Origin: Elusimicrobiota bacterium
GTDB lineage: Bacteria; CG03; SLGR01; JBDRKX01
DNA: 23,212 nucleotides
Direction: 5' to 3'
Assembly: GCA_043813605.1 (NCBI GenBank)
Contig: JBDRKX010000069.1
Coordinates: 1 to 23,212 of the forward strand
The translations under genes and the position numbers were made by a program. The notes under the pieces are model-generated. The model made no database searches, was not told the DNA's origin, and saw only the letters and a program-made list of their open reading frames with translations. Positions 1,352 through 15,494 of this stretch are shown one piece after another; the first letter of the stretch is position 1, and every line of letters starts with the position of its first letter.

Positions 1352-1360
1352 TTTCTTGTC

Positions 1361-2164
1361 CTATAAAAAGCTGTAAGCGGGCCACGGCCCGCTGTATTCA
1401 AGATAAAAACCTTTTTCTTTTACCTTGTTATTCAGAGTTTCAGCATAATCCTTGAAATGTCCTGTTTTTTCCGAATCAATCAGGTAGGCCGTATTCGATA
1501 TCATCGGTTCCGCTTTTCCCGTAAGCGCTTTATTAAGGACCTTATTTTCGGACGAATCCTCCGCCAGGCTGTTAAATCCTGCAAATATCTCTCCGGCAAT
1601 AAGACTTATTTCCTTATCCTTCTCACTTATCATATTATCCTTCAGTTCTTCTTCCATAAAAAAAGCCAGGCCTTCAGGTATTGGCTTCGATTCTTCGTCT
1701 TTTTTTTCTGATGTTCTATTTTTATCTATGATTATCTGTTCAAGTTTTTTTCCATCTCCGAGATACGCCTTCACGCTCCATTCCTGTCTGTTTCTGATCT
1801 TATCCAGAAATTTTCTGAATTCAGCATAGTCTTTTTTCAGGCATTTCTTTAGACTTATTTTCCCCTTGAAAACAGCGCCGAATCTCATCGGGATCAAATC
1901 TATGACGCCGCTCTCCGTTTTCATAACTTCTTCTATGACTCTTTCATGAGCGACAGCTTTTTCTTTTATCCATTGCAGGTCATCTTTAGCTTTCTTCTGA
2001 ATTTCTTCCATATTAAATATTCCCGGATCTATTCCGCTTACAATCGCCGCCAGATCTTTGTATATGATCTGATAAACTATGTTTTTCCCATCTATGCCTC
2101 TTATTTTCATATCGAGATCTATTCCGGTATTATCTCTTATGCAGTAAAGATATATATCGCTCAT
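1361..2164 (-). CDS. gvpL: Gas vesicle protein GvpL/GvpF family (paralogue 4)
   Basis: Motifs IYLYCI (YxYgI), AHERVIEEVM, PMRFGAVF and C-terminal EYSGPWPAYSF are typical of GvpF/L. Confidence 0.8.
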   Translation of the reverse strand: MSDIYLYCIRDNTGIDLDMKIRGIDGKNIVYQIIYKDLAAIVSGIDPGIFNMEEIQKKAKDDLQWIKEKAVAHERVIEEVMKTESGVIDLIPMRFGAVFKGKISLKKCLKKDYAEFRKFLDKIRNRQEWSVKAYLGDGKKLEQIIIDKNRTSEKKDEESKPIPEGLAFFMEEELKDNMISEKDKEISLIAGEIFAGFNSLAEDSSENKVLNKALTGKAEPMISNTAYLIDSEKTGHFKDYAETLNNKVKEKGFYLEYSGPWPAYSFL

Positions 2165-2165
2165 A

Positions 2166-2432
2166 TTATTTTACTCCGGCTAGTTCCGCCCTTTTGCTTT
2201 CGTACGCATGGATCTCCATATTACCATCCATTTTAATCTCGTATATATTTCTATCCTTCACGTGTACAGGCAATCCCAGAGACTTTACAAGTGAGCTGGC
2301 TTCATAGCCTTCCGCCTCGGCTTCCCATCCGCTGCCGACTTCTGTTACTTTGGTAATTTTTGGATTTTCAACATGCAATGACCTTTCTAAAAACTCAATG
2401 ATCCGCTTTTGAACCGTTTCAAAATTTCCCAT
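2166..2432 (-). CDS. Hypothetical small protein (88 aa) embedded in gvp operon
   Basis: ORF track. Tightly packed between gvpL and the gvpG duplicate. No motif recognised with confidence; may be a small gvp accessory protein (GvpO/R-like?). Confidence 0.4.
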   Translation of the reverse strand: MGNFETVQKRIIEFLERSLHVENPKITKVTEVGSGWEAEAEGYEASSLVKSLGLPVHVKDRNIYEIKMDGNMEIHAYESKRAELAGVK

Positions 2433-2436
2433 TTTA

Positions 2437-2565
2437 GTCCCTCCCTCTTATTTTACCTTCTTCATTTTTTCTGATTTCATCACGCCGGATAAGAAGTTCT
2501 TCTTCCATTTCGTCATATTCCTCTTCACCTATTTCATCAAATCCGAATTCCAGCTGAATTTCCAT
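2437..2565 (-). CDS. Truncated GvpG-like paralogue (42 aa) arising from partial tandem duplication; possibly a pseudogene
   Basis: Own translation: MEIQLEFGFDEIGEEEYDEMEEELLIRRDEIRKNEEGKIRGRD. This parallels the C-terminal half of GvpG (MELQMRFEIDEISEEEYNSRESEILVLLDEIRKRKESEK). A perfect AGGAGG sits 5 nt upstream (plus strand cctcct at 2571-2576). Below the 60-aa cutoff of the ORF track. Confidence 0.4.
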
Positions 2566-2730
2566 AAATTCCTCCTTTTTTTATTTAATTCCAGATTACT
2601 TTTCACTTTCTTTTCTTTTTCTGATTTCATCCAGCAGAACAAGGATTTCACTTTCCCGCGAGTTATATTCCTCTTCACTTATTTCATCAATTTCAAATCT
2701 CATTTGGAGCTCCATAAGTTCTTCTTTTAT
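2455..2730. repeat. About 150-bp tandem direct repeat covering the 3' half of gvpG and its truncated copy
   Basis: Near-identical strings at fixed 150-bp offset: tttctgatttcatc at 2468 and 2618; tattcctcttcac(c/t)tatttcatcaa at 2515 and 2665. Confidence 0.6.
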
Positions 2731-2835
2731 CTTTCCTTCATCAGTTGCTTCCTGCTCTGCCATATCATTGATCTTAGACCCGAGCCACATTACACCCTTT
2801 ACCGGAGCCAGCAGTATATCATCAATCAGAAACAT
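2596..2835 (-). CDS. gvpG: Gas vesicle protein GvpG
   Basis: N-terminus MFLIDDILLAPVKGVMWL matches the GvpG signature MFLvDDLLvrP. Acidic coiled C-terminus and 79 aa length are typical. Confidence 0.75.
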   Translation of the reverse strand: MFLIDDILLAPVKGVMWLGSKINDMAEQEATDEGKIKEELMELQMRFEIDEISEEEYNSRESEILVLLDEIRKRKESEK

Positions 2836-3754
2836 CCTGATATTCCTTTGTGTTTATAACTATGTTTATAAAATTAAACGGCGGCACGGTAGTTATGTAT
2901 TTGAATTTGATTTTATACCCGTATTCTTCATCAAGATCGTAGATCTTACGGTCAAATTCCTCTTCTATCTGCCTTTCAATGTAAAAGGCCGCATTAACGA
3001 TCATCCGGTCCCCGTAGGATTTATTCGCCCTGACATCCACCGCAAGAGGCGACAGCGTATCCATAATATTTTTTTCATGTTCCTCTTTTTCCTGTTCAAG
3101 CGCGGCTTCCACCAGTCTTCCTATCTCGACACACTGGTAGTAGTTTTTCCCCGGAGGCAGTTTCTCCGCTTTTATTTTCAATGCTTTTATCTCTTCATTT
3201 TTTTCCATTACCTCTTCATACACAATATCCATATCAAATAAGGCCCTGAGACCCAGTTCTTTCCTGTTTTCATTCTGCTCAAGGAGGTCTTTGAAATTAT
3301 CGTATGTCTTTTCCAGTATACGCATGATCTTATTTTCATCTTCAGCGATAGTATTGAATCTGACCGGGAGTACATTGTACTGTTTCATCACCTGTTCAAT
3401 CGCTCTTTCATGCGAAATAAGATTGTCCCTTGAAGTCGAATACTCTGATAAAGGCGAATCGCTTACAACAGCAGCGATGTCATTAAAACTGACAGTATAT
3501 ACGACATCTCTCCTGCCTCCGATTCCCAGCTGCCCGAAAGTTTCGGGTTTATCGGTCGGGATAATACAATATATATATTTTGCGTCCTTTACCCCGTTAG
3601 AAACGCCTCCAACTTCAATAGGGGGTACATCAACAATCTCAGACGGCGGTTTAACGCCGCCGCCTTCTTTCGCGCAAAGTGCGCCTGTTCTAACGGGGTT
3701 TACATCTGTTTCCATATCACATCTCCCACTCTTTAGGAGAAATTCTAAAATCAA
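2822..3754 (-). CDS. gvpL: Gas vesicle protein GvpF/GvpL family (paralogue 3) with N-terminal Gly/Pro-rich extension
   Basis: KYIYCII, SHERAIEQVM, LPVRFNT, NAAFYIER and C-terminal VPPFNF. The internal Met (METDV, start near 3715) would abut the upstream stop instead of overlapping it by 38 nt; the alternative start is plausible. Confidence 0.8.
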   Translation of the reverse strand: MILEFLLKSGRCDMETDVNPVRTGALCAKEGGGVKPPSEIVDVPPIEVGGVSNGVKDAKYIYCIIPTDKPETFGQLGIGGRRDVVYTVSFNDIAAVVSDSPLSEYSTSRDNLISHERAIEQVMKQYNVLPVRFNTIAEDENKIMRILEKTYDNFKDLLEQNENRKELGLRALFDMDIVYEEVMEKNEEIKALKIKAEKLPPGKNYYQCVEIGRLVEAALEQEKEEHEKNIMDTLSPLAVDVRANKSYGDRMIVNAAFYIERQIEEEFDRKIYDLDEEYGYKIKFKYITTVPPFNFINIVINTKEYQDVSD

Positions 3755-4484
3755 TAAAATTGAACACCGGCCAGGCTCCGGTATACATAAACTTTATATT
3801 TTTCTTATATTTCTCAGCTAACTCGTCCATTATGTTGTCAAATTCTTTTTCTCTGCCTTTATCTATAAGAAAAGCGGCATTCATAAACATCTCATCATTT
3901 CTAGTATCGTTTAGTTTGTAATCCAGAAAAGCTATTTTTAAGGCATCTAAGATTTCCCGGGCAGCCTCTGTTTTTTTCTCTTTCAGCGCGCTCTGGACCA
4001 TTTTTCCCGTCTCTATTTTTGCCTTTATGCTTTTGCCGGCGGCGTTCTCAAGGTTCTCCTTCAATTCCCTGATTTTATTATTCTCTTTAACTATTTCTTT
4101 ATACACGTTGCCCATGCTCTTCCACGTTCCGCTTACATTAAACTCTACCATGTGTTTGATATCCTTCAAAAGAGTTTTAAATTCATGGTATCTTCTGGAC
4201 AAAAGATCCCTTACCTCTTCTGCATTCGCAGCAATAGTACCAAACCGCACAGGAAGAACGCAGTCAAACTCCTTCATCACTTCTTCTATCACTCTTTCAT
4301 GCGCCAGCATATTCGCATTACTCGCAGAGATTTCTTCTGTCAGGAAATTGCTTACAACCACGCTCAAATCCATATATCCGATAGTTAAGACATCGTCTCC
4401 TCTCAGGCCTATACCGATAGGCCCGAAATTTCTTTCCTGCCGGGTCTCTATGATGCAGTAAATATATCTTCCTTCTTTAGTCAT
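3717..4484 (-). CDS. gvpF: Gas vesicle protein GvpF (paralogue 2)
   Basis: RYIYCII, AHERVIEEVM, LPVRFGTI, NAAFLIDK, GAWPVFNF. Canonical GvpF architecture and length (255 aa). Confidence 0.85.
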   Translation of the reverse strand: MTKEGRYIYCIIETRQERNFGPIGIGLRGDDVLTIGYMDLSVVVSNFLTEEISASNANMLAHERVIEEVMKEFDCVLPVRFGTIAANAEEVRDLLSRRYHEFKTLLKDIKHMVEFNVSGTWKSMGNVYKEIVKENNKIRELKENLENAAGKSIKAKIETGKMVQSALKEKKTEAAREILDALKIAFLDYKLNDTRNDEMFMNAAFLIDKGREKEFDNIMDELAEKYKKNIKFMYTGAWPVFNFIDFRISPKEWEM

Positions 4485-4485
4485 T

Positions 4486-5523
4486 TTATTCCATCACCTG
4501 CACCAGCAGGGCGCTTTTCTCAAAATCTTCTTTCCTGAAAGAACACCTTTCTTCCTGGCAATACTCCATAAGTACCTTGTAAGCATTCGCGGTATTGCCG
4601 AACTTATTCCCGCTGTCATCAGGATTTCTATCCGGATGGGTCAACAGAGCGGACTTCCGGTAGGCTTTTTTTATCTCATCCCTGTTCGAATAGTCCTGCA
4701 GCCCGAGCAGGTTTTTCGCGCTGCATATTTCTTCAAACGGCATCTTTTTTATTCCAAGCGTACAAAAATTGTAAGGCGGAAGAGGGCCCACGCATCTGAA
4801 ATTGACTTTATCGTTAAATTCCATGTCCAGCTTTTCGACAACGGAATCAAACTTCTCCTGCTGGTCCTTATCCACCGAACAGGCTATATTGATGATCATG
4901 CTCTCATCCATGACTTCATTTATCTTAAAACCCTGTACAATGTTTTCCAGCGTTTTCTGTATTTGACCGGCATATTTCCCTCTCTTTGTATTTAAAGCTT
5001 TCTTTACCATAAATCCCACCTGCATCTGATCTTCTATTGTTATTCCTTCAGGCTTGGATAAGAGAGTCTCTTTCAATGCCACGATCTCAGGTTCCCGGCT
5101 TGCTTCCTGCAGCGCTGAATTAAAATCGCTCCATACTGCGACTACATCGACTTCTACAATATTTTCTATCTTTCTGAAAACATCTTTGATTACGCCGTAT
5201 CCTTTTTCCAGCGCTTCGCTCACTTCGTCCTCGCCGCATACAATTGTCCCAATACTTACCGGCATGACAGGATAATACTTCATTATCTTCTCTACTATTA
5301 TCTGGTGACCGAGCAATATTTTGGCAAGAGATTCTTTGTTCATATTTCTGAGATCCGTGACTTCCGAATCACTGATTAAAGCTGATATATCCTGAAAACT
5401 TACAGCGCTGACCCTTTCCGCCTGCAGAATATTCATCATTTCTATCGACGGACTTCCGGTATTGATTATCCCGTAAATATATTTTCCCGTTACATTCAGC
5501 ATATCAGGCCTTCCTTTTTTCAT
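4486..5523 (-). CDS. GvpF/L-like protein with C-terminal J-domain (DnaJ-type, HPD motif)
   Basis: The first 270 aa carry GvpF/L motifs (KYIYGII, PVMPVSIGTI, GPLPPYNF). The C-terminus DYSNRDEIKKAYRKSALLTHPDRNPDD...KFGNTANAYKVL is a J-domain helix II-HPD-helix III. Confidence 0.8.
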   Translation of the reverse strand: MKKGRPDMLNVTGKYIYGIINTGSPSIEMMNILQAERVSAVSFQDISALISDSEVTDLRNMNKESLAKILLGHQIIVEKIMKYYPVMPVSIGTIVCGEDEVSEALEKGYGVIKDVFRKIENIVEVDVVAVWSDFNSALQEASREPEIVALKETLLSKPEGITIEDQMQVGFMVKKALNTKRGKYAGQIQKTLENIVQGFKINEVMDESMIINIACSVDKDQQEKFDSVVEKLDMEFNDKVNFRCVGPLPPYNFCTLGIKKMPFEEICSAKNLLGLQDYSNRDEIKKAYRKSALLTHPDRNPDDSGNKFGNTANAYKVLMEYCQEERCSFRKEDFEKSALLVQVME

Positions 5524-7657
5524 CGTTATTCTTCATTAACCTGATTGCTTCCAGAAAATGTCCTTTTTTAATAACCGGGTCTTTTTTGCTGTCAGGATTC
5601 TCTATGGCCTCCCTTATCGCAAGAATGGACGCCTTTCTGCAGATATATTCAATATCAGCGCCGGTTTTATTTTCCGTTTCTACGGCTAATTTTTTCAAAT
5701 CTATATCTTTTGCCATAGGTTTTTTACCGGTATGTATTCTGAAAATACTTTCTCTGGTTTTTTCATCGGGCGTCGGAAGTTTTAACAGAATGTCGAATCT
5801 GCCGCTTCTGAGTAAGGCCGGGTCGATAAGATCCAGCCTGTTTGTGGCGGCCAGGACAACCACGCCTTTAAGCTCTTCGATACCGTCCATCTCGGTGAGC
5901 ATCTGGCTGATCACCCGTTCCGCGACATGAGCCCCGTCCCCCGCAGATCCTTTTTTAGGGATCAAAGCGTCGATCTCGTCAAAAAACAGGATTGTTGGAG
6001 AGGCATGCCTGGCTATTTTAAACAGCTCGTGTATCGCCTTTTCGCTTTCCCCTATATATTTGGATATGAGCGACGGCCCTTTTACCGATATAAAGTTCAC
6101 CTTGCTCTCATTGGCCACCGCTTTGGCAAGTAGTGTCTTGCCCGTACCCGGTTCGCCGTAGAGCATAATGCCTTTCGGCGGGTTGGTGTCCATCTTTTTA
6201 AAAATATCCGGATATTTTATTGGCCACTCTACGGCCTCTTTCAGTTCCGCCTTCTCATTTTCCAGGCCTCCTATATCTTCCCATTTGACATCCGGCACTT
6301 CTATAAAATATTCCCGTACCGCCGAGGGTTCCACTTCTTTCATGGCCTCCATGAAATTATCCATGGTCACTTCCAGCTGAAGCAGTGTCTCATAAGGTAT
6401 ATCCGCCATCTCAAAATCTATTACAGGCAGGATCTTTCTCAGGGCTACCATGGCCGCTTCCCTTGCCAGAGCTTCCAGGTCAGCCCCGACAAATCCGTGC
6501 GTTATCTCCGCTATCTTCTGCATGCTCACATCTTCAGAAAGGGGCATTCCCCGGGTATGTATATGCAGGATATCGAGCCTTCCGTTCTTATCGGGTATAG
6601 GCACCGCTATTTCCCTGTCGAACCGCCCCGGCCTCCGGAGCGCCGGATCTATAGTATTGGGAATATTTGTGGCGCCTATTACTATTACATGGCCCCTGGA
6701 TTCCAGCCCGTCCATGAGCGACAGGAGTTGGGCGACGACCCTCCGTTCCACCTGTTTTTCTCCTCCCATGTCTTCTCTTTTTGGCGCTATTGCGTCTATT
6801 TCGTCTATAAATATTATCGCGGGCGCGTTTTTCTGGGCCTCTTCAAAAATACTCCTTAACCGGCCCTCGCTTTCGCCATAGAATTTCCCCATGATCTCCG
6901 GGCCGGATATGTGGGTGAAAAATGCGTCCGTCTCGTGGGCTACAGCCCGGGCTGTCAATGTCTTCCCTGTACCGGGAGGTCCGTATAGAAAAACTCCTTT
7001 TGGAGCTTCTACCCCTAACCGTTCGAATACTTCAGGATATTTCAGCGGGAGCTCTATCATCTCACGTATTCTCTGTACCTGAGGGCCCAATCCCCCTACA
7101 TCCTCGTACGATATTTTAATCGGGCCGGCTTTTTCCGACAGATTTGTCTTTACCTTTATCACGCTTGCGGAATCTACAATGACATTGCCGCAGGGACTTG
7201 TATCTGTTACCTTGAAATCACACCATCTCGATCCGAAGAGAGTAACTCTCACTCTGTCCCCGGCCGACACAGGTAAACCTTCAAGAAGGGAACCGATGTA
7301 TTTCGCGTCCTTATCCCTCTCAAGCAGGCTGGATACGGTTAAAGGTTCAATACTGATCTTTTGAGCCGGATTATATTCAGCTTTATGTACCTTTAGTTTC
7401 TCATCCAGCCCCACCCCTGCGTTATCTCTGGATATCCCGTCAATCTGAATGATCTTTTTTCCTCTATCTTCGCTATAAAGCGGCATTGCCTTTGCGGGAG
7501 TCTTTCTTTTTCCTTCTATCTCTATTATCTCTCCCACTTCTATATTGAGTAACTTCATATCTTCAGGGCCGATCCTGGCTATCGCCCTTCCTACGCTGTT
7601 CGGGAGAGCCTCCTGCACTTTTAAACTTATTGATTTATCTTTCTGTTTTGTATTCAT
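5504..7657 (-). CDS. Cdc48/VCP/VAT-like AAA+ ATPase (N-domain plus D1 and D2 AAA modules)
   Basis: Two Walker A sites, [17 protein letters not shown] and [17 protein letters not shown]. Two Walker B sites, [10 protein letters not shown] and [10 protein letters not shown]. Arginine fingers [13 protein letters not shown] and [10 protein letters not shown]. An N-terminal region of about 180 aa precedes D1. Confidence 0.9.
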
Positions 7658-8589
7658 GAAAATAACAGCTCCTTGAATCCCTTCAACACCTCTATGCCTT
7701 TCACCTCATTTGCCTGCAGCGGGACAATGGTTATTTTAAGCGTATTGAATTTTTCTTTTATCGCTTTTATATATTTCTCCTGGTCCTTTTTTTTAGCCTG
7801 GCAAAAATCGCATTTTCTGGATTCTAAAACATTATTTACTACTAACTGTTTTACATTTATGCCGTATTTATTAAGACTGTTTACCAATCTTTCAGTCTCT
7901 GAAATAGCCATATCTTCCGGTATGGTCACCGGTATAAACTCGCATTTCGAACTGTCTTTCAATATGCTTTCAACTTTTTTTACCGTCTTTTTCAGATCTA
8001 CAAGAAAATGATCGCCTTCATCGGGTTTATAATCTCCGGAAAGCCTTTTTACTATATATCTATACTTCCATCTCATTTGAGCCATTACTTTGATCCAGTC
8101 ATCTAACAGTCCCGGCAGGGTAAGCAGCCTTAAGGCATGCCCGGTGGGTGCGGTATCAACAATATATTTATCGTATCCCGATTTTTCTATTAAATCTACT
8201 ATTGTTTTAAATCCCATAACTTCGTCTAATCCGGGGATAGACAATGCGAACAGGGACTCGATATCTTCATCATCCATATAAGTCGAAGTTCCCAGGATCG
8301 TCTTTATCTCATTCTCATGCTCAATTTTAAATTCTTCAAAGGTCTCTTCTGCGCTTATTTCAAGGCCGCTTAAATGCTCGAAAGTTTTAATCTTTATTAT
8401 TGAATTCCCGATCTTCTGCCCTATACTGTCTGCCAGAGAATGGGCCGGGTCTGTAGATATCATTAAAGTATTATACACTTCCGATAAGTAAATTCCGGCA
8501 CCTGAAGCGCAGGTTGTTTTGCCTACTCCGCCTTTCCCGCCGAACAGAATCAGCTTTAACGAATCTTGTCTTAATCCGGATAAGCTCAC
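7654..8589 (-). CDS. ArsA/Get3-family ATPase
   Basis: Deviant Walker A LFGGKGGVGKTTCAS, ISTDPAHSLADS, switch II VDTAPTGHALRLL, and a CDFC (CxxC) motif near the C-terminus of the type Get3 uses for Zn-mediated dimerisation. The 4-nt ATGA-type overlap with the downstream Cdc48-like gene suggests translational coupling. Confidence 0.8.
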   Translation of the reverse strand: MSLSGLRQDSLKLILFGGKGGVGKTTCASGAGIYLSEVYNTLMISTDPAHSLADSIGQKIGNSIIKIKTFEHLSGLEISAEETFEEFKIEHENEIKTILGTSTYMDDEDIESLFALSIPGLDEVMGFKTIVDLIEKSGYDKYIVDTAPTGHALRLLTLPGLLDDWIKVMAQMRWKYRYIVKRLSGDYKPDEGDHFLVDLKKTVKKVESILKDSSKCEFIPVTIPEDMAISETERLVNSLNKYGINVKQLVVNNVLESRKCDFCQAKKKDQEKYIKAIKEKFNTLKITIVPLQANEVKGIEVLKGFKELLFS

Positions 8590-8595
8590 TGCTTC

Positions 8596-9126
8596 CTACT
8601 TTTTTATTCTTATTTCTAATATTCCGTTTGTATAGGAAAACGAAAGATTTGCGGCCTCGGCTTCTGCCGGGAGCAGTATTTCTTTATGGTACTTTCTTGA
8701 CCCGCCGCTGGCTGAAATATCAAGAACATCGCCTTTTAAATCCAGCTTTATATCTTTCTGATTTATCCCCGGCATTTCGGCATATACCCTGATCTCATTC
8801 TTCTCGTCAAACACATCAACAATAGGCTCTCTTTCTTCTTCTACCCTGGCGCCCTTATCAGTCTTTTTAATATTTCCAAACGACTCTACTACGGGTTTAC
8901 CACCCACGGCCGACTTTATTGAAAAGCCGAATACTCCTTTGGCTCCATTCTTAATATTGCCGAAGTCTATCTCTCCCTCTTTTTTTATTTCGCCGCCGGC
9001 TTCTTCCAGTTTCTGAGCAAGATCTACTAATTTTTCTATACCCTTAAATATTCCTCCCACGCTCAGCTTTCCTATGCCGAAATCCACTTCTATATCTTCT
9101 TTTTTTTTCTCTTTTTTCTTTACCAT
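8596..9126 (-). CDS. gvpH: Hsp20/alpha-crystallin family small heat-shock protein (GvpH-like)
   Basis: The C-terminal alpha-crystallin domain PIVDVFDEKNEIRVYAEMPGINQKDIKLDLKGDVLDISA...LPAEAEAANLSFSYTNGILEIRIKK includes the GILEI/IxI-like tail. The Lys/Gly-rich N-terminus is encoded over an A9 homopolymer. Confidence 0.8.
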   Translation of the reverse strand: MVKKKEKKKEDIEVDFGIGKLSVGGIFKGIEKLVDLAQKLEEAGGEIKKEGEIDFGNIKNGAKGVFGFSIKSAVGGKPVVESFGNIKKTDKGARVEEEREPIVDVFDEKNEIRVYAEMPGINQKDIKLDLKGDVLDISASGGSRKYHKEILLPAEAEAANLSFSYTNGILEIRIKK

Positions 9127-9145
9127 ATTTTTCCTCTCTTTCAGA

Positions 9146-9460
9146 TTAATAACTTATAGCCATTCTTTTAATAGATCTGGCGGACTTGTTCTCTACAGTT
9201 TTAATTTCAGTTTCACTTTGTACTTCTTTTTGTAAACTCTCCAGACGCCCGTTGATACTGTCTATTTTTTTTATCAGACTTGCTTTTCTTTTTTCCATTG
9301 ACTCAAACTCCTTTTTAAGCCTGCCCTGTTCCAATATAAGAGAATACATCTCCAGGCACGAGGTCCTCTGCATCTTTGGAATTGAACGAAGCCCTGTGCC
9401 GCGCAGGCTCTTTATGTCTGTGAGGCCCGGCAACTGCTCTAATCTCTTTATGTTATGCAT
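9146..9460 (-). CDS. Hypothetical coiled-coil protein (104 aa) in gvp operon
   Basis: ORF track. Predicted coiled coil (LKKEFESMEKRKASLIKKIDSINGRLESLQKEVQ). Its start overlaps the gvpN stop by 13 nt. No family recognised. Confidence 0.4.
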   Translation of the reverse strand: MHNIKRLEQLPGLTDIKSLRGTGLRSIPKMQRTSCLEMYSLILEQGRLKKEFESMEKRKASLIKKIDSINGRLESLQKEVQSETEIKTVENKSARSIKRMAISY

Positions 9461-10386
9461 CGTGCTACACGCTCCTTTTGATTTTTCTCAACCAGCTCCC
9501 TGATTATCTCTTTGACTCTATCCTGGTTGGATCTCGAACCTACTCTGCTGGTTTCTGATGCAAGGATGTCCTGGCATATCTGTTTAAACTCCCCGTTTGA
9601 TTTTATTGGAGAGAGGTTCCGCATTTTAAGGGTCTTGGCAATCATAATGCATCCGCGTATAGTAGGAGAAAATTCGCATTTTCCGGAATCCCTTAAACCT
9701 CTTGCGATATTGACTATTATTTCCGCATGCTTTTTTGACATGTTTGATTTCGACCTGGTTATAGCTACCTCTGTCTCATAATCAAAGTGTTCCAAATCTA
9801 AGGTCACCATTCTATCCCTCAATGCATCCTGGCTTCTGTGAACACCTGCGTATTCTTCCGGATTACTGGTAAATATAGCCTTAAAATCTGCGTTAACTTT
9901 CAGGTATGGGCTGTCTCCTCTTGATTCAGGTAAGTCCATTATCCTTTCCTGCAGAATGGAAAGGAGTATGTTATTTGCTTCGGGCCGGGAACGGGTAAAC
10001 TCGTCGTAAATAAGTGTGTAACCGTATTTACACGCAACTGTAAGACGGTTATCTACCCATTTTTTCACCATATCCTCTTCTGTCTTTAATACCCGGGATA
10101 TGAATCTGTCAACAACTTTTTTTATCCTGTAACCATACTCGCCGCCAACAAGACTGGATGTTGTAAACTCTTCATCACCGTGTATCATAACAACGGGCCT
10201 GCCTAGCTTGCTGGCAATATGCATAGCCAGAGTTGTCTTACCGGTTCCCGACGGGCCCCTCAAATGAACCGGAAAACCCGAATTAATATAGGAAATTGCT
10301 CTACCGGTAATATTCTGAACATATTTTGTGTTCACAAAATCCGGCATAGGTGTCGGGTCAATTACTGTACTTGTATCATCAATCAT
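9448..10386 (-). CDS. gvpN: Gas vesicle protein GvpN (MoxR/CbbQ-like AAA+ ATPase)
   Basis: FPVHLRGPSGTGKTTLAMHIASKLGRPVVMIHGDEE (Walker A plus GvpN-specific flank), Walker B TLIYDEFTRSRPE, length 312 aa. Confidence 0.9.
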   Translation of the reverse strand: MIDDTSTVIDPTPMPDFVNTKYVQNITGRAISYINSGFPVHLRGPSGTGKTTLAMHIASKLGRPVVMIHGDEEFTTSSLVGGEYGYRIKKVVDRFISRVLKTEEDMVKKWVDNRLTVACKYGYTLIYDEFTRSRPEANNILLSILQERIMDLPESRGDSPYLKVNADFKAIFTSNPEEYAGVHRSQDALRDRMVTLDLEHFDYETEVAITRSKSNMSKKHAEIIVNIARGLRDSGKCEFSPTIRGCIMIAKTLKMRNLSPIKSNGEFKQICQDILASETSRVGSRSNQDRVKEIIRELVEKNQKERVARCIT

Positions 10387-10404
10387 ATCGCTTCTCCCTT
10401 TAGT

Positions 10405-10560
10405 TTATCTTCTGCATGCAAACCAAACCTGTTTCTTGTTGCCTGCTTTTACTGCGTTTTCTGTCCCATTACAAACCGGACAGGCTCCTGTAGTATGAAC
10501 CAGATTTAAAGGCGCTGCCTTGCCTGTTCCTTTACAAAACGAATATCTATCTGCATCCAT
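10405..10560 (-). CDS. Small zinc-ribbon-like ORF (51 aa), unannotated in the track
   Basis: Own translation: MDADRYSFCKGTGKAAPLNLVHTTGACPVCNGTENAVKAGNKKQVWFACRR, i.e. C-x17-CxxC-x18-C including a CxxCxGxx motif. RBS GAGGAAA lies 6 nt upstream. Sits between the repeat-protein gene and gvpN. Confidence 0.35.
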   Translation of the reverse strand: MDADRYSFCKGTGKAAPLNLVHTTGACPVCNGTENAVKAGNKKQVWFACRR

Positions 10561-10605
10561 CTTATTTTCCTCTACCTTTACCTTTTTCTCCGTTTTTATT
10601 CTTGT

Positions 10606-10983
10606 TCATGACATTTTTTTTGCACCTTTAGCAGACCTATTCCCATCTGCTCCCATCCTTTTATTTCTTAAAGTCTCAGCCATCAGGTTCCAGATTTGCC
10701 TACTTTCGGCCAAATCTTCTTTTACTTCCTCTTCCTTTCTTCTGAAATCCTCTTTTAAAGTGTTGACACTATTAACCAGGTCTTCTCTTGTTTCCTGTAA
10801 GCCAATCTTCAACTCATTACTCATCCTCTGGTGCATTCTTTTAGACTCGATTAAGAACTTCCTTGCCTTATCTCTTATAGCTTTCGCATCCTTTTTGAGG
10901 TTTTTAATGCCCCTTCTTCTATCTTCGTAACTCATTACAATGTCTTCACTAAGAGACTCCATCCCTGTTGACACTTTACCCAT
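10606..10983 (-). CDS. Alpha-helical repeat protein, paralogue C of a three-member family (candidate GvpC-like)
   Basis: N-terminal motif SEDIVMSYEDRRRGIKNL shared with the ORFs at 11332-12135 (TEDIVGSFNERVKAIGDL) and 12152-12733 (LKNVLTSYDEGVHSIGSI). Internal FLIESKRMHQRMSNEL resembles the FxxEHKxMSxEL repeats of paralogue B. Confidence 0.5.
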   Translation of the reverse strand: MGKVSTGMESLSEDIVMSYEDRRRGIKNLKKDAKAIRDKARKFLIESKRMHQRMSNELKIGLQETREDLVNSVNTLKEDFRRKEEEVKEDLAESRQIWNLMAETLRNKRMGADGNRSAKGAKKMS

Positions 10984-10986
10984 AAA

Positions 10987-11331
10987 CTAACCTCCTTTTA
11001 GAACAACTCCTTTGCCCCCACATTTGATACAGGGTAATCCGCTACCTCCTGTCCGGCCGGTGCCTTTGCACTCTTCACATTCTTCGGTTGAACCTATTAC
11101 TGTAACGCTTCCCTTGCCACCGCATACTGTACAGGTAATACGGCTATGAGGGTAAATACCACTGCCTTTACAAAAAACGCATTTAATCACAGGTTCCTTA
11201 ACTTCAACCTTACCCTTACCCAGGCATACCTGACAAGTAGAAAGCTTTGATAACAGCTTAAAAGGATCCTTTCCTTTTCCATTACAAAAAGCACATTTAA
11301 TCAGGCTCATATTTTTATCTTTTCGCTCCAA
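10987..11331 (-). CDS. DnaJ-type zinc-finger repeat protein with six CxxCxGxG motifs
   Basis: CAFCNGKG, CQVCLGKG, CVFCKGSG, CTVCGGKG, CEECKGTG and CIKCGGKG in 114 aa. The motif is diagnostic of the DnaJ Cys-rich domain (Pfam DnaJ_CXXCXGXG). No J-domain in this ORF. Confidence 0.7.
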   Translation of the reverse strand: MERKDKNMSLIKCAFCNGKGKDPFKLLSKLSTCQVCLGKGKVEVKEPVIKCVFCKGSGIYPHSRITCTVCGGKGSVTVIGSTEECEECKGTGRTGGSGLPCIKCGGKGVVLKGG

Positions 11332-12135
11332 CTACCTTTTATGTACTGCACAGAATTTAGAACCCTTAACAGATTTTCCCTTACAGTTTTTCCCGGACTT
11401 CGTAGTGCCAGCACATTTACTTACTCCCCTGCCCTTTTTAACAGTTTTGCTGATCTCTGATGTCTTTTTTCCGGCATCAATCTTAGGCACTACACCTTCC
11501 TTCCTGGCTTTGTTCAATACTGAAGACATTCCCTGCCAGGCTTCCTTTGCTTTTTTCATATCCAAATCACATTCACCCAGGAACCCTTTAACATCACTGA
11601 CAATACCGCCAACATATTTACCTAAACTCTTTCTCAATGCATCACTCATATCAGAATGTTCTTCATTAAACTCCTTTAACTTCTGTGAAACATCGCATTC
11701 GATATTTTTAATGCTTTCATTGATACTCCCCATCATATCTTTAAAGTCTTTTAACCTATCAACTTCGCCTTTTGCTAAGCCTTTTTTAAGAAAATCCGCC
11801 ATCTCCTTATGCTCTTTCTGAAAACTTTTGATCATATTCCCTACTTCATCGGTCATATTCCCAACAAAATTTCCTAAGTCTTTTGTCAGTTCAATACTCA
11901 TCTGTTTATGTTCTGTCTGGAATTCTTTCAGAAAATTTTGTACGTTCTTTGACAATCCATCTACAAATGCAGCCAAATCATCTGCCTGTTCCTTACTCAT
12001 CTTTTTTCTGTCCAACTTGAACTTTTTCAAAGTTTCTTGGGTATCAACAGTTAAATCACCAATTGCCTTTACCCGCTCATTAAAGGACCCAACAATGTCT
12101 TCTGTAACCTTTTTCATTTCATTTGCAACAACCAT
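11332..12135 (-). CDS. Alpha-helical protein with exact 33-residue repeats (candidate GvpC analogue), paralogue B; C-terminal Lys/Cys/His tail
   Basis: Phe39/Phe72/Phe105 anchor three repeats at exact 33-aa spacing: KFKLDRKKMSKEQADDL, EFQTEHKQMSIELTKDL and SFQKEHKEMADFLKKGL. A looser fourth copy is EFNEEHSDMSDALRKSL. The tail reads KCAGTTKSGKNCKGKSVKGSKFCAVHKR. It lies second after gvpA, near where gvpC usually sits. Confidence 0.55.
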   Translation of the reverse strand: MVVANEMKKVTEDIVGSFNERVKAIGDLTVDTQETLKKFKLDRKKMSKEQADDLAAFVDGLSKNVQNFLKEFQTEHKQMSIELTKDLGNFVGNMTDEVGNMIKSFQKEHKEMADFLKKGLAKGEVDRLKDFKDMMGSINESIKNIECDVSQKLKEFNEEHSDMSDALRKSLGKYVGGIVSDVKGFLGECDLDMKKAKEAWQGMSSVLNKARKEGVVPKIDAGKKTSEISKTVKKGRGVSKCAGTTKSGKNCKGKSVKGSKFCAVHKR

Positions 12136-12151
12136 CTTTTTCCTCCTTACA

Positions 12152-12733
12152 TTACTTACTTTTACTATACTTCCCCAGCATCACTTTAAAATCATTTATC
12201 TTTAGGACTTTCCCCTTGGAAAGAAGCTCTCCGAGGTCATCTGCCAATGCCTTTTGTATGTTTTGAAATTCGATAAGCTTTTCTGAAATCTCTTTTTTGC
12301 TCTTTTCCTGATCGCTGATCGCTTCTCTATTAACTTCATATAACTCCCGGGACTGTATCTTCTTACCACTAATTAGAGAAACCTTAATAAGTTCCATATT
12401 TTTCCTTAACTTATATGCCGCTTCTTTCTGCTCATTAAGGTATCTCTTAAATAACCTCCTGATTTCTTCCATGGTTTGGTCCTGCACAGAAATTATTTCT
12501 TTCATCATATTGTCAAAATCTTTTTTCCGCAGATGTTCATTTATAGAAAGATTGTTTTTTAGTTCCTCACTTATTTTCTGCCTTTCCTTATCTGCGCCAA
12601 GTATGGATTCCTGGAAACTTCCGATGATCAGATGGGCATCATCAAATATTGACCCTATACTGTGAACACCTTCATCATAAGAAGTCAAAACATTTTTTAG
12701 AATTTTACTTGCATTTACTGTTGTGTTAGTCAT
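12152..12733 (-). CDS. Alpha-helical repeat protein, paralogue A (candidate GvpC-like), immediately downstream of gvpA
   Basis: Shares the N-terminal motif and a repeat-like segment LIEFQNIQKALADDL with paralogues B and C. RBS AAGAAGGA precedes the ATG. Confidence 0.5.
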   Translation of the reverse strand: MTNTTVNASKILKNVLTSYDEGVHSIGSIFDDAHLIIGSFQESILGADKERQKISEELKNNLSINEHLRKKDFDNMMKEIISVQDQTMEEIRRLFKRYLNEQKEAAYKLRKNMELIKVSLISGKKIQSRELYEVNREAISDQEKSKKEISEKLIEFQNIQKALADDLGELLSKGKVLKINDFKVMLGKYSKSK

Positions 12734-12778
12734 CTTAAAATATCCTTCTTTTCATTCCTTATTATTAGAAGAAATTGG

Positions 12779-12823
12779 CGAGATATGCTCTCTAGTGTTA
12801 ACACTGGATAAAAGGACATCTCG
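12779..12823 (-). terminator. Hairpin between gvpA and the downstream genes; candidate partial terminator/attenuator or operator
   Basis: Perfect 12-bp palindrome agtgttaacact (12794-12805) nested in a longer imperfect inverted repeat gcgagat...atctcgg. On the transcript it is followed by the semi-U-rich GCCAAUUUCUUCUAAUAAU. Confidence 0.35.
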
Positions 12824-12851
12824 GCAAATCCCTCTTTTTACTTGCTTTGCC

Positions 12852-13058
12852 TTACGCTGCTGTTGCGGTCAAGCCTATTGCTTCAGCATATTTCAGGTAA
12901 GTTTCTACTGATGCAACTACAACACGCGCTTCGATAGCAAGCAGCTCGATTCCCACTAATGAGAATCTCACCCATGCGTCAATCACGACCCCCTTGTCCA
13001 GTATCCGGTCGACAACATCGACAAGACTGGAAGAACCAATTGCTTTTTCCATTGCCAT
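12852..13058 (-). CDS. gvpA: Gas vesicle major structural protein GvpA
   Basis: [63 protein letters not shown] is the near-invariant GvpA core. AGGAGG RBS (plus strand cctcct 13067-13072) lies 8 nt upstream. Confidence 0.95.
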
Positions 13059-13235: not shown

Positions 13236-13263
13236 ATTATACCTATAATATATTATTTGTCAA
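13236..13263 (-). promoter_or_regulatory. Consensus sigma70-type promoter for gvpA (TTGACA-N16-TATAAT)
   Basis: Minus strand reads cTTGACAaataatatattataggTATAATagg. The -35 element is at 13263-13258 and the -10 element at 13241-13236. Predicted TSS is near 13229, giving a 5' UTR of about 170 nt. Confidence 0.5.
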
Positions 13264-13289: not shown

Positions 13290-15494
13290 TCAAGAAAGGT
13301 TATTGACACATTCTATGAATTTCTTCAAATTAAACGGTTTTGACATGTATTCATCCGCGCCGCATCTGAATATCCGTTCTTTAGTGCCGGGCATATCATA
13401 ACCGGTTATAGCCAGGATCTTCATACCCTTGTTATCAGGGTCATTGTGTATTGATTCGCACAACTGAAAACCATTGATCCCCGGCAGCTTCAGATCCAGG
13501 ATAACCAGATCCGGCCTCAAGGCCTTCACTTGTTTAAGAGCGTCTAATCCATCACCGGTTGACGCAATTTCATAATCATATTTTGATTTCTTCAGCAGCA
13601 GCCTTGTTATGATGTTTATTATGTTATTTTCATCATCTACTATCAGCACCTTTTTCTTCTTCTTTTTTTCTTCTAAATCCGAAACGCTCTTCTTATATTC
13701 ACGGGACTTCGATATACGGCGTTCATTCCATGGATACAATTCCGATATCCTTACATTATTCAATACTATTCCCATGATTGAGGCATGTACTTTTTCAAGC
13801 TGGTCTTTAGCCTTTTTCAAAAGAGCCCCTGAAGATATCACATTATGATGGACCAGGATAACTGCATCAACCTTAGTAGACAGGATAACAGGTTCTGCTG
13901 AAAGGAGCAGCGCCGAAGAGTCAAATATGATCAATTCATATTCTTTCCTGGCCTGCTCTATAAATTGATCCATCTTCCGGGAATTCAGCATATTAGCCGG
14001 ATTCTCTTCTTTTCCGCATGTTATTATTTTTAAATTTTCTTTGTTATCCAAGCTAAATGCATTTTCCCCGTATTTTTCAGGAATATCTTTCACCGCGTTC
14101 TTCCAATCCATCTTACCCATGATTATTTCACTTAAACCGCCGCCCGGCGGAAGACCGAATATCTGCCGGATCAAAGATTCACCCTTACCGGCATCAATAA
14201 ACAGCGTTTTTATCCCGGCGGCAGCGCTCGCTATCGCATAATTAACTGCAATCAGCGTTTTCTCTTCTTCAAGGCAGACACCGGTGAATAATAAGACTCC
14301 CGCATTCTTCTCCGGCAGCGTAAATTTAATATTCATCCATAAAGTAAAATATGCTTCGGTAACAGATGCTTTTGCAGAATAATTAAAGAGCAGCCTGTTT
14401 CTGAGACTTTCTATCTTACAAGATGCATTTGAACGTTTAAAAAAATTGAAATCGGACTTAGCTGTTTTTTTGTCCTTTATCTGAGGGATGACTCCAAGAA
14501 CGGGGATATTTATGTCATTCTCCATTTTTTCTATGTCCCGCAAAAAGACCTCATTTGTACCTGTTTTTAACGTTAATATAAACCCGAATATGACCCCGAA
14601 AATTCCACCGAACAACAGTTTCACAGGCAGATCCGGTTTTAACGGTTGAACGGGGATAACAGCGGGGGAGATCACCTGCATACTGGCGAGATTATCAAAA
14701 TCTTCAAACATAGCTTCTCGATATTTCTCTTTCAGCTGTTCACGGAATTCTTCATCCGCTTCGATCTTTTTCAATATAAGGTCTTTTTGAACAGCCTTAT
14801 CCAGTTCCTTTTCTACTTCTTCGATCTGATCCTGTATTTCGATAACAGCCGGGTGCTTATAATTAAACTTCCTACGCAGCTTTATCTGATCGAGCTTAAG
14901 TCCGCTTAAGTCTGTTTTAAGCTCATTTGCATTATTAATGAATCCGCGCTTTTCTGTTAAGTCATCTATCTGGCTCCTTTTCTGTTCTATAAGTGCCCCT
15001 ATATCATCTAGCTGTTCCTCATACCGGCTTTTTACTTTCTGCCCTTTTTTAATTTTCTGATCCTCGGTTTTTTCTATATATATCTTAACCATGTTGTTAA
15101 CAATTCCTGCTGCTCCTTCGGCGCTGTCGAGCCTGGCAGTAAGTTGAATAATATTGGTGCCTTTTACCCGTTCTGCTGAAACATGTTTCTGTAAATAATC
15201 GATCTTCATGTTTTTATCATCAAAGGCAATACCCGGATACAGGATTCCCGTATATTCTGCCGCTTTATATATAACTGAATAACTTTTTATTTTTTTGCAT
15301 TCAGTCGCGATCAATTCACTAACTGCCATACCGTACTGGTTTTCCATAATTTTGTCTCTTTCTGAATGCAATTTTATTTCAAGTAAAGCGCTGCTTTCAA
15401 AAACCGGTTTCTGTACAAAGCTGACAACTATTGCGGTAACTATGCCGATAATAACGCTATAGATTATCTTTTTCATGTTTCTGTTAATAATCAT
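13290..15494 (-). CDS. Wzc/PCP-2-like polysaccharide co-polymerase with degenerate BY-kinase P-loop and C-terminal receiver (REC) domain
   Basis: N-terminal TM plus Wzz-like region, coiled coil, second TM LLFGGIFGVIFGFILTL. The kinase-like domain has its Walker A position as FTGVCLEEEKT instead of GEGKS/T, with Walker A' LFIDAG and Walker B LIIFDSS. C-terminus: KKVLIVDDENNIINIITRLL...DLVILDLKLPGINGF...KPF, a CheY-like REC. Confidence 0.75.
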   Translation of the reverse strand: MIINRNMKKIIYSVIIGIVTAIVVSFVQKPVFESSALLEIKLHSERDKIMENQYGMAVSELIATECKKIKSYSVIYKAAEYTGILYPGIAFDDKNMKIDYLQKHVSAERVKGTNIIQLTARLDSAEGAAGIVNNMVKIYIEKTEDQKIKKGQKVKSRYEEQLDDIGALIEQKRSQIDDLTEKRGFINNANELKTDLSGLKLDQIKLRRKFNYKHPAVIEIQDQIEEVEKELDKAVQKDLILKKIEADEEFREQLKEKYREAMFEDFDNLASMQVISPAVIPVQPLKPDLPVKLLFGGIFGVIFGFILTLKTGTNEVFLRDIEKMENDINIPVLGVIPQIKDKKTAKSDFNFFKRSNASCKIESLRNRLLFNYSAKASVTEAYFTLWMNIKFTLPEKNAGVLLFTGVCLEEEKTLIAVNYAIASAAAGIKTLFIDAGKGESLIRQIFGLPPGGGLSEIIMGKMDWKNAVKDIPEKYGENAFSLDNKENLKIITCGKEENPANMLNSRKMDQFIEQARKEYELIIFDSSALLLSAEPVILSTKVDAVILVHHNVISSGALLKKAKDQLEKVHASIMGIVLNNVRISELYPWNERRISKSREYKKSVSDLEEKKKKKKVLIVDDENNIINIITRLLLKKSKYDYEIASTGDGLDALKQVKALRPDLVILDLKLPGINGFQLCESIHNDPDNKGMKILAITGYDMPGTKERIFRCGADEYMSKPFNLKKFIECVNNLS

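Follow-up and report, generated by a model that had tools for sequence, protein, structure and literature searches.

A Cdc48-type unfoldase, a GvpH-like small heat-shock protein and a GvpF-borne J-domain in a widespread gas-vesicle gene cluster

Why would an operon for gas vesicles, which are gas-filled protein organelles, encode a protein-unfolding motor of the Cdc48 family together with a Get3-like ATPase, a small heat-shock protein (sHsp), a J-domain and a DnaJ-type zinc finger? The question is raised by a 23,212-bp contig of an Elusimicrobiota metagenome-assembled genome (MAG) from an uncultured source, which we analysed as a complete record and refer to below as the window. A reading made from the sequence only had proposed that these five parts form a dedicated module acting on the shell protein GvpA, and that the J-domain and the zinc finger are the two halves of a split Hsp40. 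Our analysis supports the dedicated module, which is conserved, co-evolves with its neighbours, has its own Cdc48 clade and bears its J-domain on GvpF in 56 of 56 loci; neither the five parts as a fixed set nor the split Hsp40 withstood comparison. We interpret the region as the proteostasis core of a widespread, horizontally mobile gas-vesicle (gvp) operon, probably providing a client-specific chaperone and unfoldase system for GvpA-family proteins, and put the probability of this interpretation at roughly 0.55.

Every long open reading frame (ORF) of the window lies on the minus strand. Positions 540-13058 hold 18 genes that run in one direction, spaced by -38 to 219 nt, and since gvpA, gvpN, gvpF/L, gvpG, gvpJ/M-type and gvpK genes were all found there above threshold, this array is a gas-vesicle cluster. 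From gvpA onwards the order is cc193, cc267, the zinc-finger gene, cc125, gvpN, u104, hsp20, the ArsA/Get3-family gene (arsA in the gene orders below), cdc48 and a gvpF fused to a J-domain (gvpF::J); two gvpF/L genes, gvpG, u88, a fourth gvpF/L, a gvpJ::gvpK fusion and u92 follow. Profile searches and direct reading bear out every gene call and domain assignment of the sequence-only reading, all on the minus strand (Table 1). They also confirm the 4-nt overlap that it described: the arsA stop and the cdc48 start share the letters ATGA. Between cdc48 and gvpF::J, stop and start overlap by 20 nt; with the second ATG as the start, 1 nt separates them. We found no convincing minus-strand terminator inside the 12.5-kb gene array, and the single 12/12 match to the sigma-70 consensus in 13.4 kb lies upstream of gvpA. 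Family scans of the window detected no mobile-element genes inside or bordering the chaperone module. The module genes are real, intact, co-oriented and translationally coupled.

How far this arrangement extends was assessed in two samples. An alignment of the Cdc48 N-domain was run against one genome per species (a scan of the genome collection with the single GvpF::J protein had found no relative) and returned at least 463 stretches with a relative; the best 80 loci, all from MAGs or single-cell genomes, were used. Because these loci had been chosen by Cdc48, a reciprocal sample was made by scanning metagenome contigs with GvpN, giving at least 568 stretches with a relative. Gene content was determined by tblastn with every window protein and is counted only where the flanking DNA of a locus was long enough. 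The closest Cdc48 proteins, 73-76% identical to that of the window, came from Omnitrophota, Nitrospirota, Bacteroidota and many unbinned metagenomes, and the first three contexts inspected had the same order, GvpN-Hsp20-ArsA-Cdc48-GvpF::J-GvpF...GvpG...GvpK. All 80 of the best Cdc48 loci are in gvp clusters, with the same order in essentially all of them, and they bear about 18 phylum labels: Elusimicrobia, Omnitrophota, Nitrospirota, Nitrospinota, Planctomycetota, Bacteroidota/Ignavibacteria, Latescibacteria, Cloacimonadota, Desantisbacteria, Sumerlaeota, Chlamydiota, Aminicenantes, Chrysiogenales, Thermodesulfobacteriota and other 'delta' lineages, Saganbacteria and others. Hsp20 (69/69), GvpN (54/54), GvpF (55/55) and GvpG (40/40) were present without exception, GvpA in 40 of 41 loci, the J-domain in 53 of 55 and ArsA in 65 of 76. 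Among the loci chosen by GvpN we found Cdc48 in 27/27, Hsp20 in 35/35, the J-domain in 24/24 and canonical ArsA in 23/33. More than 100 independent loci repeat this order, which puts the arrangement far beyond what chance would give.

The proteins also vary together. Mantel tests against the Cdc48 identity matrix gave r=0.67 for ArsA, 0.68 for Hsp20, 0.70 for GvpF::J and 0.46 for GvpN (all p<=5e-4), and by these correlations the module has passed down as one unit together with the gvp genes. Together with the counts of 80/80 and 27/27, they settle the co-occurrence check proposed with the sequence-only reading: the module is integral to gvp clusters, and neither sporadic nor recently inserted. 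Mean identity across phyla is 77% for Cdc48, 80% for GvpN, 71% for Hsp20 and 69% for ArsA; such high values, and a Cdc48 tree that does not follow the phyla, indicate much horizontal transfer of the cluster as a whole. Judging from the orthologues described below, the functional motifs (HPD, CxFC, P-loop and pore loops) are under selection.

Since ArsA and the zinc finger are absent from some loci, the core of the cluster type is smaller than the five-part set. It consists of Hsp20 and Cdc48, joined by GvpF::J, with ArsA and the zinc finger as common accessories that the cluster can do without. What had been presented as one module of five therefore has to be cut back, as ArsA is absent or exchanged for a two-domain form in some loci and the zinc finger is optional.

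The Cdc48 protein is a complete member of its family. It scores 921.8 bits as a whole protein against TIGR01243 (cut-off 802.65) and contains the domains CDC48_N (PF02359, 87.6 bits) and CDC48_2 (PF02933, 35.2 bits), two AAA domains (PF00004) and two AAA_lid domains (PF17862). The closest solved structure is Thermoplasma VAT (5g4f, E 3e-215), with which it aligns from end to end. The Walker A motifs are GPPGTGKT and GEPGTGKT, Walker B is DEID in both rings, and the pore loops, aligned to those of VAT, are aromatic (KFYGESE in D1, KYIGESE in D2); the orthologues have two Walker A motifs and aromatic pore loops throughout (FY in D1, Y/F-V/I in D2). In its N (double-psi barrel and beta-clam)-D1-D2 architecture, its Walker motifs and its pore loops it is thus like VAT, archaeal Cdc48 and p97. 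It differs from VAT and archaeal Cdc48 in being bacterial, in belonging to a clade found only in gvp clusters and in lacking the HbYX C-terminus that docks to the proteasome: none of 67 orthologues has a Tyr at position -2, and the window protein ends in ...EKRKA. Nor are ubiquitin, SAMP or UBX-type adaptors, as in p97/Cdc48 systems, apparent around the gvp Cdc48 genes. The N-domain is 64-72% identical across phyla. A look-up of the window Cdc48 by exact sequence gave no entry, although the homology database does contain the protein, as an NCBI MAG protein.

A distance-based tree separates the gvp-linked Cdc48 proteins from others. The 18 MAG-type gvp sequences are monophyletic (100/100), two gvp-linked proteins of methanotrophs are their sister (100/100), and the non-gvp Cdc48 proteins of alphaproteobacteria form a separate clade (100/100). 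Given a distance method and a small sampling, the simplest account is that gvp clusters recruited Cdc48 once, long ago. The methanotroph sequences were found by tblastn against the PLSDB plasmids, where Cdc48 proteins reached at most 52% identity; two of them end annotated gvp clusters, on Methylocella tundrae T4 p1 (NZ_CP139088.1) and Methylosinus sp. C49 pMSC49b (NZ_AP022334.1), whereas the Cdc48 genes of Rhizobium, Methylobacterium, Microvirga, Sphingomonas and Haloarcula are not gvp-linked. The two clusters run gvpA-gvpN-small gene-gvpF-gvpG-gvpJ::K-gvpJ/M-GvpH-185-193-aa gene-CDC48 and contain no ArsA, J-domain or zinc finger. They share with the window the gvpJ::K fusion, GvpH and a Cdc48 that is sister to the MAG-type clade, and differ from it in that this Cdc48 is about 50% identical and an unrelated protein of 185-193 aa takes the position of ArsA. 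This family-less gene between GvpH and Cdc48 (L169 8405-8986; L166 5382-5939), whose Methylosinus copy overlaps the Cdc48 start by 4 nt, could encode an adaptor. We found no paper about the methanotroph plasmid gvp clusters, which are annotated in RefSeq.

An archaeal plasmid offers a possible view of what preceded this recruitment. On Halobacterium salinarum NRC-1 pNRC200 (L173 5432-8082) a Cdc48 gene is preceded, at 66 nt, by an Hsp20 gene of the same strand. The two are far removed from the plasmid's gvp cluster, and the Hsp20 domain aligns with that of the window Hsp20. An sHsp-Cdc48 pair can thus exist alone, and may be an older unit captured by the gvp cluster.

The Hsp20 of the window passes PF00011 and narrowly passes NF041800 ('archaeal Hsp20', 141.4 against 140), and its best PDB match is 4rzk (E 1e-16). 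With PF05455, the GvpH family, it stays below threshold (16.6 against 22 bits). It does align over its full length, at E 3e-20, with a Methylosinus protein that is named GvpH in RefSeq and matches PF05455 with 28.9 bits, and on this homology we take it to be a divergent relative of GvpH. The sHsp that had been counted as an extra component is therefore the GvpH of this cluster type. Like haloarchaeal GvpH it is an Hsp20-like accessory Gvp protein; unlike it, it falls under the PF05455 threshold and over generic HSP20 thresholds, and the haloarchaeal gvpH is not beside a Cdc48 gene. No C-terminal IxI tail is present: in the window protein and in every orthologue of more than 140 aa, the sequence stops with the final strand of the domain (...ILEIRIKK). 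Haloarchaeal GvpH keeps GvpM soluble and prevents its aggregation (PMC6107691).

GvpF/L proteins bind GvpA and are regarded as chaperones (PMC10903477), and in this cluster type one of them carries a J-domain. That of the window is near-complete (44.7 bits against 27.8, E 1.5e-11) and includes the HPD motif, which is kept in 57 of 57 orthologues (consensus KKAy..A...HPDkNp...F...AYkiL). In all 56 loci the J-domain is in the same ORF as GvpF.

The zinc-finger protein resembles the DnaJ zinc-finger structures 2ctt and 1exk as well as anti-TRAP, which likewise is a CxxCxGxG repeat protein without a J-domain. The BSD2-type assembly chaperones of plants are another example of stand-alone DnaJ-type zinc-finger proteins that lack a J-domain. 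Unlike DnaJ, with four repeats, the window protein has six (three predicted zinc centres) and is linked to gvpN. In a motif search it was present in 92 of 105 loci, with six repeats in 75 of the 92; its gene usually lies directly upstream of gvpN, at a median distance of 224 nt, and some 5 kb away from gvpF::J. Neither GvpF::J nor the zinc-finger protein reaches the cut-off of the type I Hsp40 model TIGR02349 (38.0 and 34.0 bits against 377.2), and the C-terminal domain and G/F region of DnaJ are absent from both. The arrangement gives no support to an Hsp40 divided over two proteins: the zinc finger keeps company with gvpN, has more repeats than DnaJ and is missing in 13 of 105 loci, while the J-domain is nearly constant.

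The Get3-like protein scores 266.5 bits against TIGR00345 (GET3_arsA_TRC40; cut-off 135). Its P-loop is the deviant Walker A motif GKGGVGKT, kept in 65 of 70 orthologues, and its CDFC (residues 260-263) aligns with the zinc-binding CDFC of Methanocaldococcus jannaschii Get3; CxFC is found in 64 of the 70. The best relatives in the PDB, Chlamydomonas ARSA1 (5zme) and the archaeal Get3 proteins 3ug6 (M. jannaschii) and 3zq6 (M. thermautotrophicus), match it over its full length in sequence and fold and share the deviant Walker A motif. The top 50 Foldseek matches of its AlphaFold model were all Get3/TRC40, at a template-modelling (TM) score of about 0.7; as the model has a predicted local distance difference test (pLDDT) value of 60, and is least confident in the helical subdomain (residues 98-121 and 148-195), these fold matches serve only as support for the sequence result. 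It is unlike Get3/TRC40 systems in that a GET or WRB-type receptor and a tail-anchored client are not evident, and in its setting, which is a gas-filled protein organelle rather than a membrane. An identity as an arsenical-pump ArsA was rejected: the score with TIGR04291 was 125.7 bits against 650, the protein has one domain, no ars genes lie nearby, and residues 28-215 are free of Cys, so that the arsenite-binding cysteines of Escherichia coli ArsA have no counterpart.

A homology search with the window ArsA led to the same close clade, at 65-70% identity. Between ArsA and Cdc48 the median gap is 2 nt, and an overlap of these genes is seen in 33 of 71 loci. A profile search of all ORFs revealed three states. 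In the majority of loci a single-domain gene adjoins Cdc48; in five loci a two-domain gene (656-681 aa) lies downstream of the GvpF genes, with no single-domain copy by Cdc48 (Table 1); and in about ten long loci there is no ArsA within 10 kb.

A protein-handling role dedicated to gas-vesicle proteins is the most economical reading of a Cdc48 clade of their own and a J-domain fused to GvpF, and the components suggest how such a system might work. GvpF-family proteins would hold newly made GvpA, and the fused J-domain, with its HPD motif, would switch the Hsp70 of the host (DnaK) onto this client, in the manner of other J-proteins with specific substrates. The GvpH-type sHsp, which lacks the tail, would be a holdase that works without ATP and maintains GvpA/J/M-type proteins in a recoverable state, as might the six-repeat zinc-finger protein where it is present. 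A dimer of the Get3-like protein could shield a hydrophobic Gvp segment in its groove and release it, depending on ATP, at the growing vesicle; this step would be optional, as the two-domain ArsA may substitute for it in some clusters and others have none. The substrates of the Cdc48 hexamer would be off-pathway aggregates, wrongly inserted subunits or shell protein from collapsed vesicles, which it would thread through the pore loops of both rings, unfold and release, returning GvpA to the holdases for re-use. Unfolding and release, as quality control while vesicles are being assembled and as a means of recovering GvpA, is favoured over degradation because the proteasome-docking tail is missing and no inspected cluster contains a protease gene, and we consider it the most likely activity of this Cdc48 on these comparisons.

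Such a scheme would parallel the bi-chaperone disaggregase of bacteria and yeast, which combines the sHsp IbpA/B, Hsp70 with a J-protein, and ClpB/Hsp104. The likeness is one of working principle: both have a holdase for keeping aggregates recoverable, a J-domain by which Hsp70 is brought to the client and, as the threading motor, a double-ring AAA+ protein whose pore loops are aromatic. Here Cdc48 would take the place of ClpB, and client specificity would come from the GvpF fusion. The motor of the window differs in being of Cdc48 type and not Hsp100 type, without an M-domain for docking Hsp70, and its J-domain sits on a client-specific GvpF.

Several observations weigh against this interpretation. 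ArsA is missing from about a quarter of the long loci and the zinc finger from 13 of 105, the cluster shows no evident tail-anchored client of the classical kind for Get3, and the 23-kb MAG contig carries no dnaK for the proposed Hsp70 partner. The evidence fits unfold-and-degrade as well as unfold-and-release. Nearly all loci are MAGs, whose clusters are known from genes alone and whose gas vesicles are predicted, and the Cdc48 tree was built by neighbour joining from 708 columns, with 100 bootstraps and 26 sequences only. In Anabaena, Bacillus megaterium, Serratia and Halobacterium, the vesicles are built by gvp clusters that are not known to include Cdc48, a J-domain or a zinc finger of this kind. 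As these well-studied clusters work without it, the module is not mechanistically essential for vesicle formation, and it is best seen as a device for efficiency or robustness, not as minimal assembly machinery.

Of the other explanations, the one that survives best is regulated disassembly, which we consider rather unlikely. Cdc48 would then extract GvpA from intact or collapsed vesicles and hand it over to a housekeeping protease, such as ClpP, Lon or FtsH, whose gene lies elsewhere, for loss of buoyancy or clearance of debris, and the sHsp, Get3 and the J-protein would be mere adaptors. The Cdc48/VAT family consists of segregases that pull subunits from stable assemblies, the aromatic pore loops are kept in both rings, and whether a specific mechanism of gas-vesicle degradation exists is a stated open question (PMC10903477). 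Cdc48 is moreover the last gene of the minimal methanotroph clusters, in which it follows GvpH. Set against this are the lack of a protease gene in every inspected cluster and the HbYX count of 0/67. The genes also appear to be co-transcribed and translationally coupled with assembly genes instead of being separately regulated, which suits a role in assembly better.

The sHsp-Cdc48 pair could instead be a general stress cassette, as in archaea, that rides with the gvp island and buffers its proteotoxic cost without any specific Gvp client. Such a pair outside a gvp cluster is what we find on pNRC200, and gvp expression in a heterologous host is indeed costly: in E. coli, shell protein made ahead of the assembly factors is proteotoxic (PMC12848028). 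A cassette of this kind would hardly carry its J-domain covalently on GvpF in 56 of 56 loci, or an sHsp that is a full-length homologue of a protein annotated as GvpH. The gvp-linked Cdc48 proteins have a clade to themselves; 80 of 80 of the best loci, and 27 of 27 of those chosen by GvpN, place them in gvp clusters, and the adaptor- or substrate-binding N-domain is 64-72% identical even across phyla. We regard this alternative as improbable.

Less probable still is a regulatory device, in which Cdc48 would unfold or remove a transcription factor or Gvp regulator and so time expression. Haloarchaea provide an analogue, in which the NTPase GvpD lowers the activator GvpE; two-component and sigma-54 regulators precede the clusters in several loci, and AbrB/MazE-type small DNA-binding genes lie inside some of them. 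Family scans, in contrast, found no regulator gene inside the window operon and no similarity to GvpD or GvpE in any window protein, and a holdase, a targeting ATPase, a J-domain on a GvpA-binding scaffold and a zinc-finger chaperone domain are together not easily accounted for by regulation.

That chaperone genes were recently inserted into this one operon without relation to it, as the somewhat raised G+C content at third codon positions (GC3) of cdc48 might suggest (0.507, and 0.538 in D1, where most of the operon has 0.31-0.49), is refuted by more than 100 loci of many phyla in which these genes keep their order, by the co-evolution of the module proteins, by the lack of mobile-element genes within or beside the module and by flanking genes that reach a GC3 of 0.50. 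The overall G+C content of cdc48 is 0.475. As a sign of separate acquisition its GC3 was rejected as too weak and as contradicted by conservation and co-evolution; candidate causes are the codon usage of a highly conserved gene or a partial replacement by recombination.

Part of this gene set has been noticed before. Castillo and Saier reported in 2010 two-domain ArsA homologues (~637 aa) and hsp20 genes in gvp clusters of several phyla, at loci of Polaribacter irgensii, Pelodictyon luteolum, Geobacter uraniireducens, Anabaena/Nostoc and an acidobacterium, and proposed that the ATPase energises a step of biogenesis and that Hsp20 is a chaperone (PMC2963123). Their clusters resemble ours in placing an ArsA-family ATPase and Hsp20 among gvpN/F/L/G/J/K genes, and five of the present-type loci carry the two-domain form. 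In contrast to them, the window and most loci have a single-domain Get3-like ATPase with CxFC that is coupled to a Cdc48 gene, and the 2010 paper mentions no Cdc48, J-domain fusion or zinc-finger protein (PMC2963123). In the full-text literature, outside which most subscription journals lie, we found Cdc48, Get3, J-domains and DnaJ-type zinc fingers unreported with gvp clusters, save for the ArsA and Hsp20 of that paper; the 'Cdc48' of one gas-vesicle paper is a contaminant of nickel-nitrilotriacetic acid purification (PMC6107691). The statement that nothing of the kind had been described for any gvp cluster is therefore only partly right. ArsA and Hsp20 were already known (PMC2963123), and what we found undescribed in gvp clusters is Cdc48, the GvpF::J fusion and the zinc finger.

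The remaining genes of the cluster are collected in Table 1. The window GvpA is 83-100% identical to the GvpA of related loci, and GvpN has been described as the AAA+ ATPase of all clusters (PMC10903477). The three coiled-coil proteins cc193, cc267 and cc125 may take the part of GvpC-like outer proteins in clusters of this type. Orthologues of cc267, from 53 loci, have K/R-rich tails; a Cys/His-rich tail that might be taken for a zinc knuckle was found in one of the 53, that of the window, and was rejected as such. Loose NCBIfam and Pfam scans of u104, cc125, cc193, cc267, u88 and u92 gave nothing credible. The 60 orthologues of u104 within the loci share the core SIPkvqrS.yLeLY.L.rEKdRLEKE, and a search of 5.8 billion proteins found only u104 itself. 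On the methanotroph plasmids a gene of the size of u104 overlaps gvpN; a u104 profile weakly matches the Methylocella gene after gvpN (E 5e-4, among the ORFs of three loci only), and the Methylosinus gene after gvpN has no pairwise similarity to u104. The position of u88 is taken in locus L003 by a gene for an 87-aa protein of the GvpO family (PF05800). The GvpJ::GvpK fusion recurs in L003 and on Methylosinus pMSC49b, and a comparable GvpK with a GvpA-like domain is known from Anabaena flos-aquae (PMC10903477).

Table 1. Positions of the genes and sites of the window and of selected genes in compared loci (numbers beginning with L).
Feature	Position	Strand	Evidence or remark
Promoter-like site	13236-13263	-	TTGACA-16-TATAAT upstream of gvpA; perfect sigma-70 consensus
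gvpA, major shell protein (68 aa)	12852-13058	-	Gas_vesicle E 2.4e-16
cc193, coiled coil, cc267 paralogue	12152-12733	-	no Pfam/NCBIfam match; E 8e-6 to cc267; position after gvpA conserved
cc267, coiled-coil repeat protein	11332-12135	-	weak coiled-coil matches only
Stand-alone DnaJ-type zinc-finger protein (114 aa)	10987-11331	-	PF00684 40.5 bits against 32.7; six CxxCxGxG repeats
cc125, short cc267 paralogue	10606-10983	-	E 3e-6 to cc267; no family match
gvpN, AAA+ (MoxR/AAA_5-type) ATPase of gas-vesicle growth	9448-10386	-	TIGR02640 339 bits against 266.8
u104, conserved 104-aa protein	9146-9460	-	overlaps gvpN stop by 13 nt
GvpH-like sHsp, alpha-crystallin domain	8596-9126	-	PF00011 32.8 bits against 20.8
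Single-domain Get3/TRC40/ArsA-family ATPase (311 aa)	7654-8589	-	ArsA_ATPase E 5e-81; TIGR00345
Cdc48/VAT-type double-ring AAA+ protein (717 aa)	5504-7657	-	TIGR01243, Pfam domains, VAT alignment
GvpF/L with C-terminal J-domain	4486-5523	-	PF06386 residues 13-254, E 2e-50; PF00226 residues 272-320
GvpF/L paralogue 2	3717-4484	-	PF06386 E 2.8e-63
GvpF/L paralogue 3	2822-3754	-	PF06386 E 3.4e-62
gvpG	2596-2835	-	PF05120 E 1.9e-21
u88, conserved 88-aa protein	2166-2432	-	no family match; orthologues 40-51% identical in most loci
GvpF/L paralogue 4	1361-2164	-	PF06386 E 7.5e-49
GvpJ/A-like domain fused to GvpK	818-1351	-	PF00741 residues 9-47 and PF05121 residues 97-177
u92, last conserved cluster gene	540-818	-	no family match; orthologues in most long loci
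Two-domain ArsA gene	L010 15062-17032		
Two-domain ArsA gene	L090 14822-16852		
Two-domain ArsA gene	L092 17619-19604		
Two-domain ArsA gene	L111 12433-14445		
Two-domain ArsA gene	L127 11023-13068		
Volactin gene	L003 10090-11136		
Volactin gene	L004 14497-15543		
Volactin gene	L005 14994-16034		

Some Nitrospirae and Bacteroidetes clusters contain, between their GvpF genes, an actin-like Volactin gene (PF25216; Table 1) and a family-less gene for a protein of about 175 aa, neither of which is found in the window. Small DNA-binding genes of AbrB/MazE/SpoVT type lie in or just after some clusters (L001 7378-7545; L166 8780-9100), and sigma-54 activators and two-component genes stand before several related clusters and not before that of the window. 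The window cluster is flanked by exopolysaccharide genes upstream of gvpA and, downstream, by a partial gene for an unrelated protein (1-190). Two of the exopolysaccharide genes, at 13290-15494 and 19827-22124 on the minus strand, carry fused receiver (REC) domains, one joined to a Wzz/tyrosine-kinase-like protein and the other to Polysacc_synt_2; between them lie a stand-alone REC gene (15507-15956) and a gene for a PEGA protein with four repeats (17375-19132).

What, then, would these genes mean for the biology of gas vesicles? Tentatively, and with a good deal of doubt, the gvp-dedicated Cdc48 branch, the GvpH sHsp, the GvpF-tethered J-domain and the Get3 homologue might be put together as an ATP-driven machine that extracts and recycles the GvpA shell. 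If that were true, it would be the first enzymatic system known to dismantle or proof-read a gas vesicle and would define the first native substrate of a bacterial Cdc48, and Get3 would have been given a new use, bringing a hydrophobic protein to a gas-water interface and not to a membrane. The module in any case provides testable candidates for the solubility of the extremely hydrophobic, aggregation-prone GvpA and its delivery to the growing shell and for active disassembly of the vesicle, both of which are open questions (PMC10903477). Experiments are possible because two cultured methanotrophs have the minimal GvpH-Cdc48 version. Gas vesicles serve as acoustic reporter genes whose expression in E. 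coli is limited by proteotoxicity (PMC12848028), and a co-evolved chaperone set could improve their heterologous production. The cluster type is widespread, with loci from anoxic sediments and groundwater; it would offer a likely physiological client for bacterial Cdc48, a protein of essentially unknown functions, and would give Get3 a job away from the membrane.

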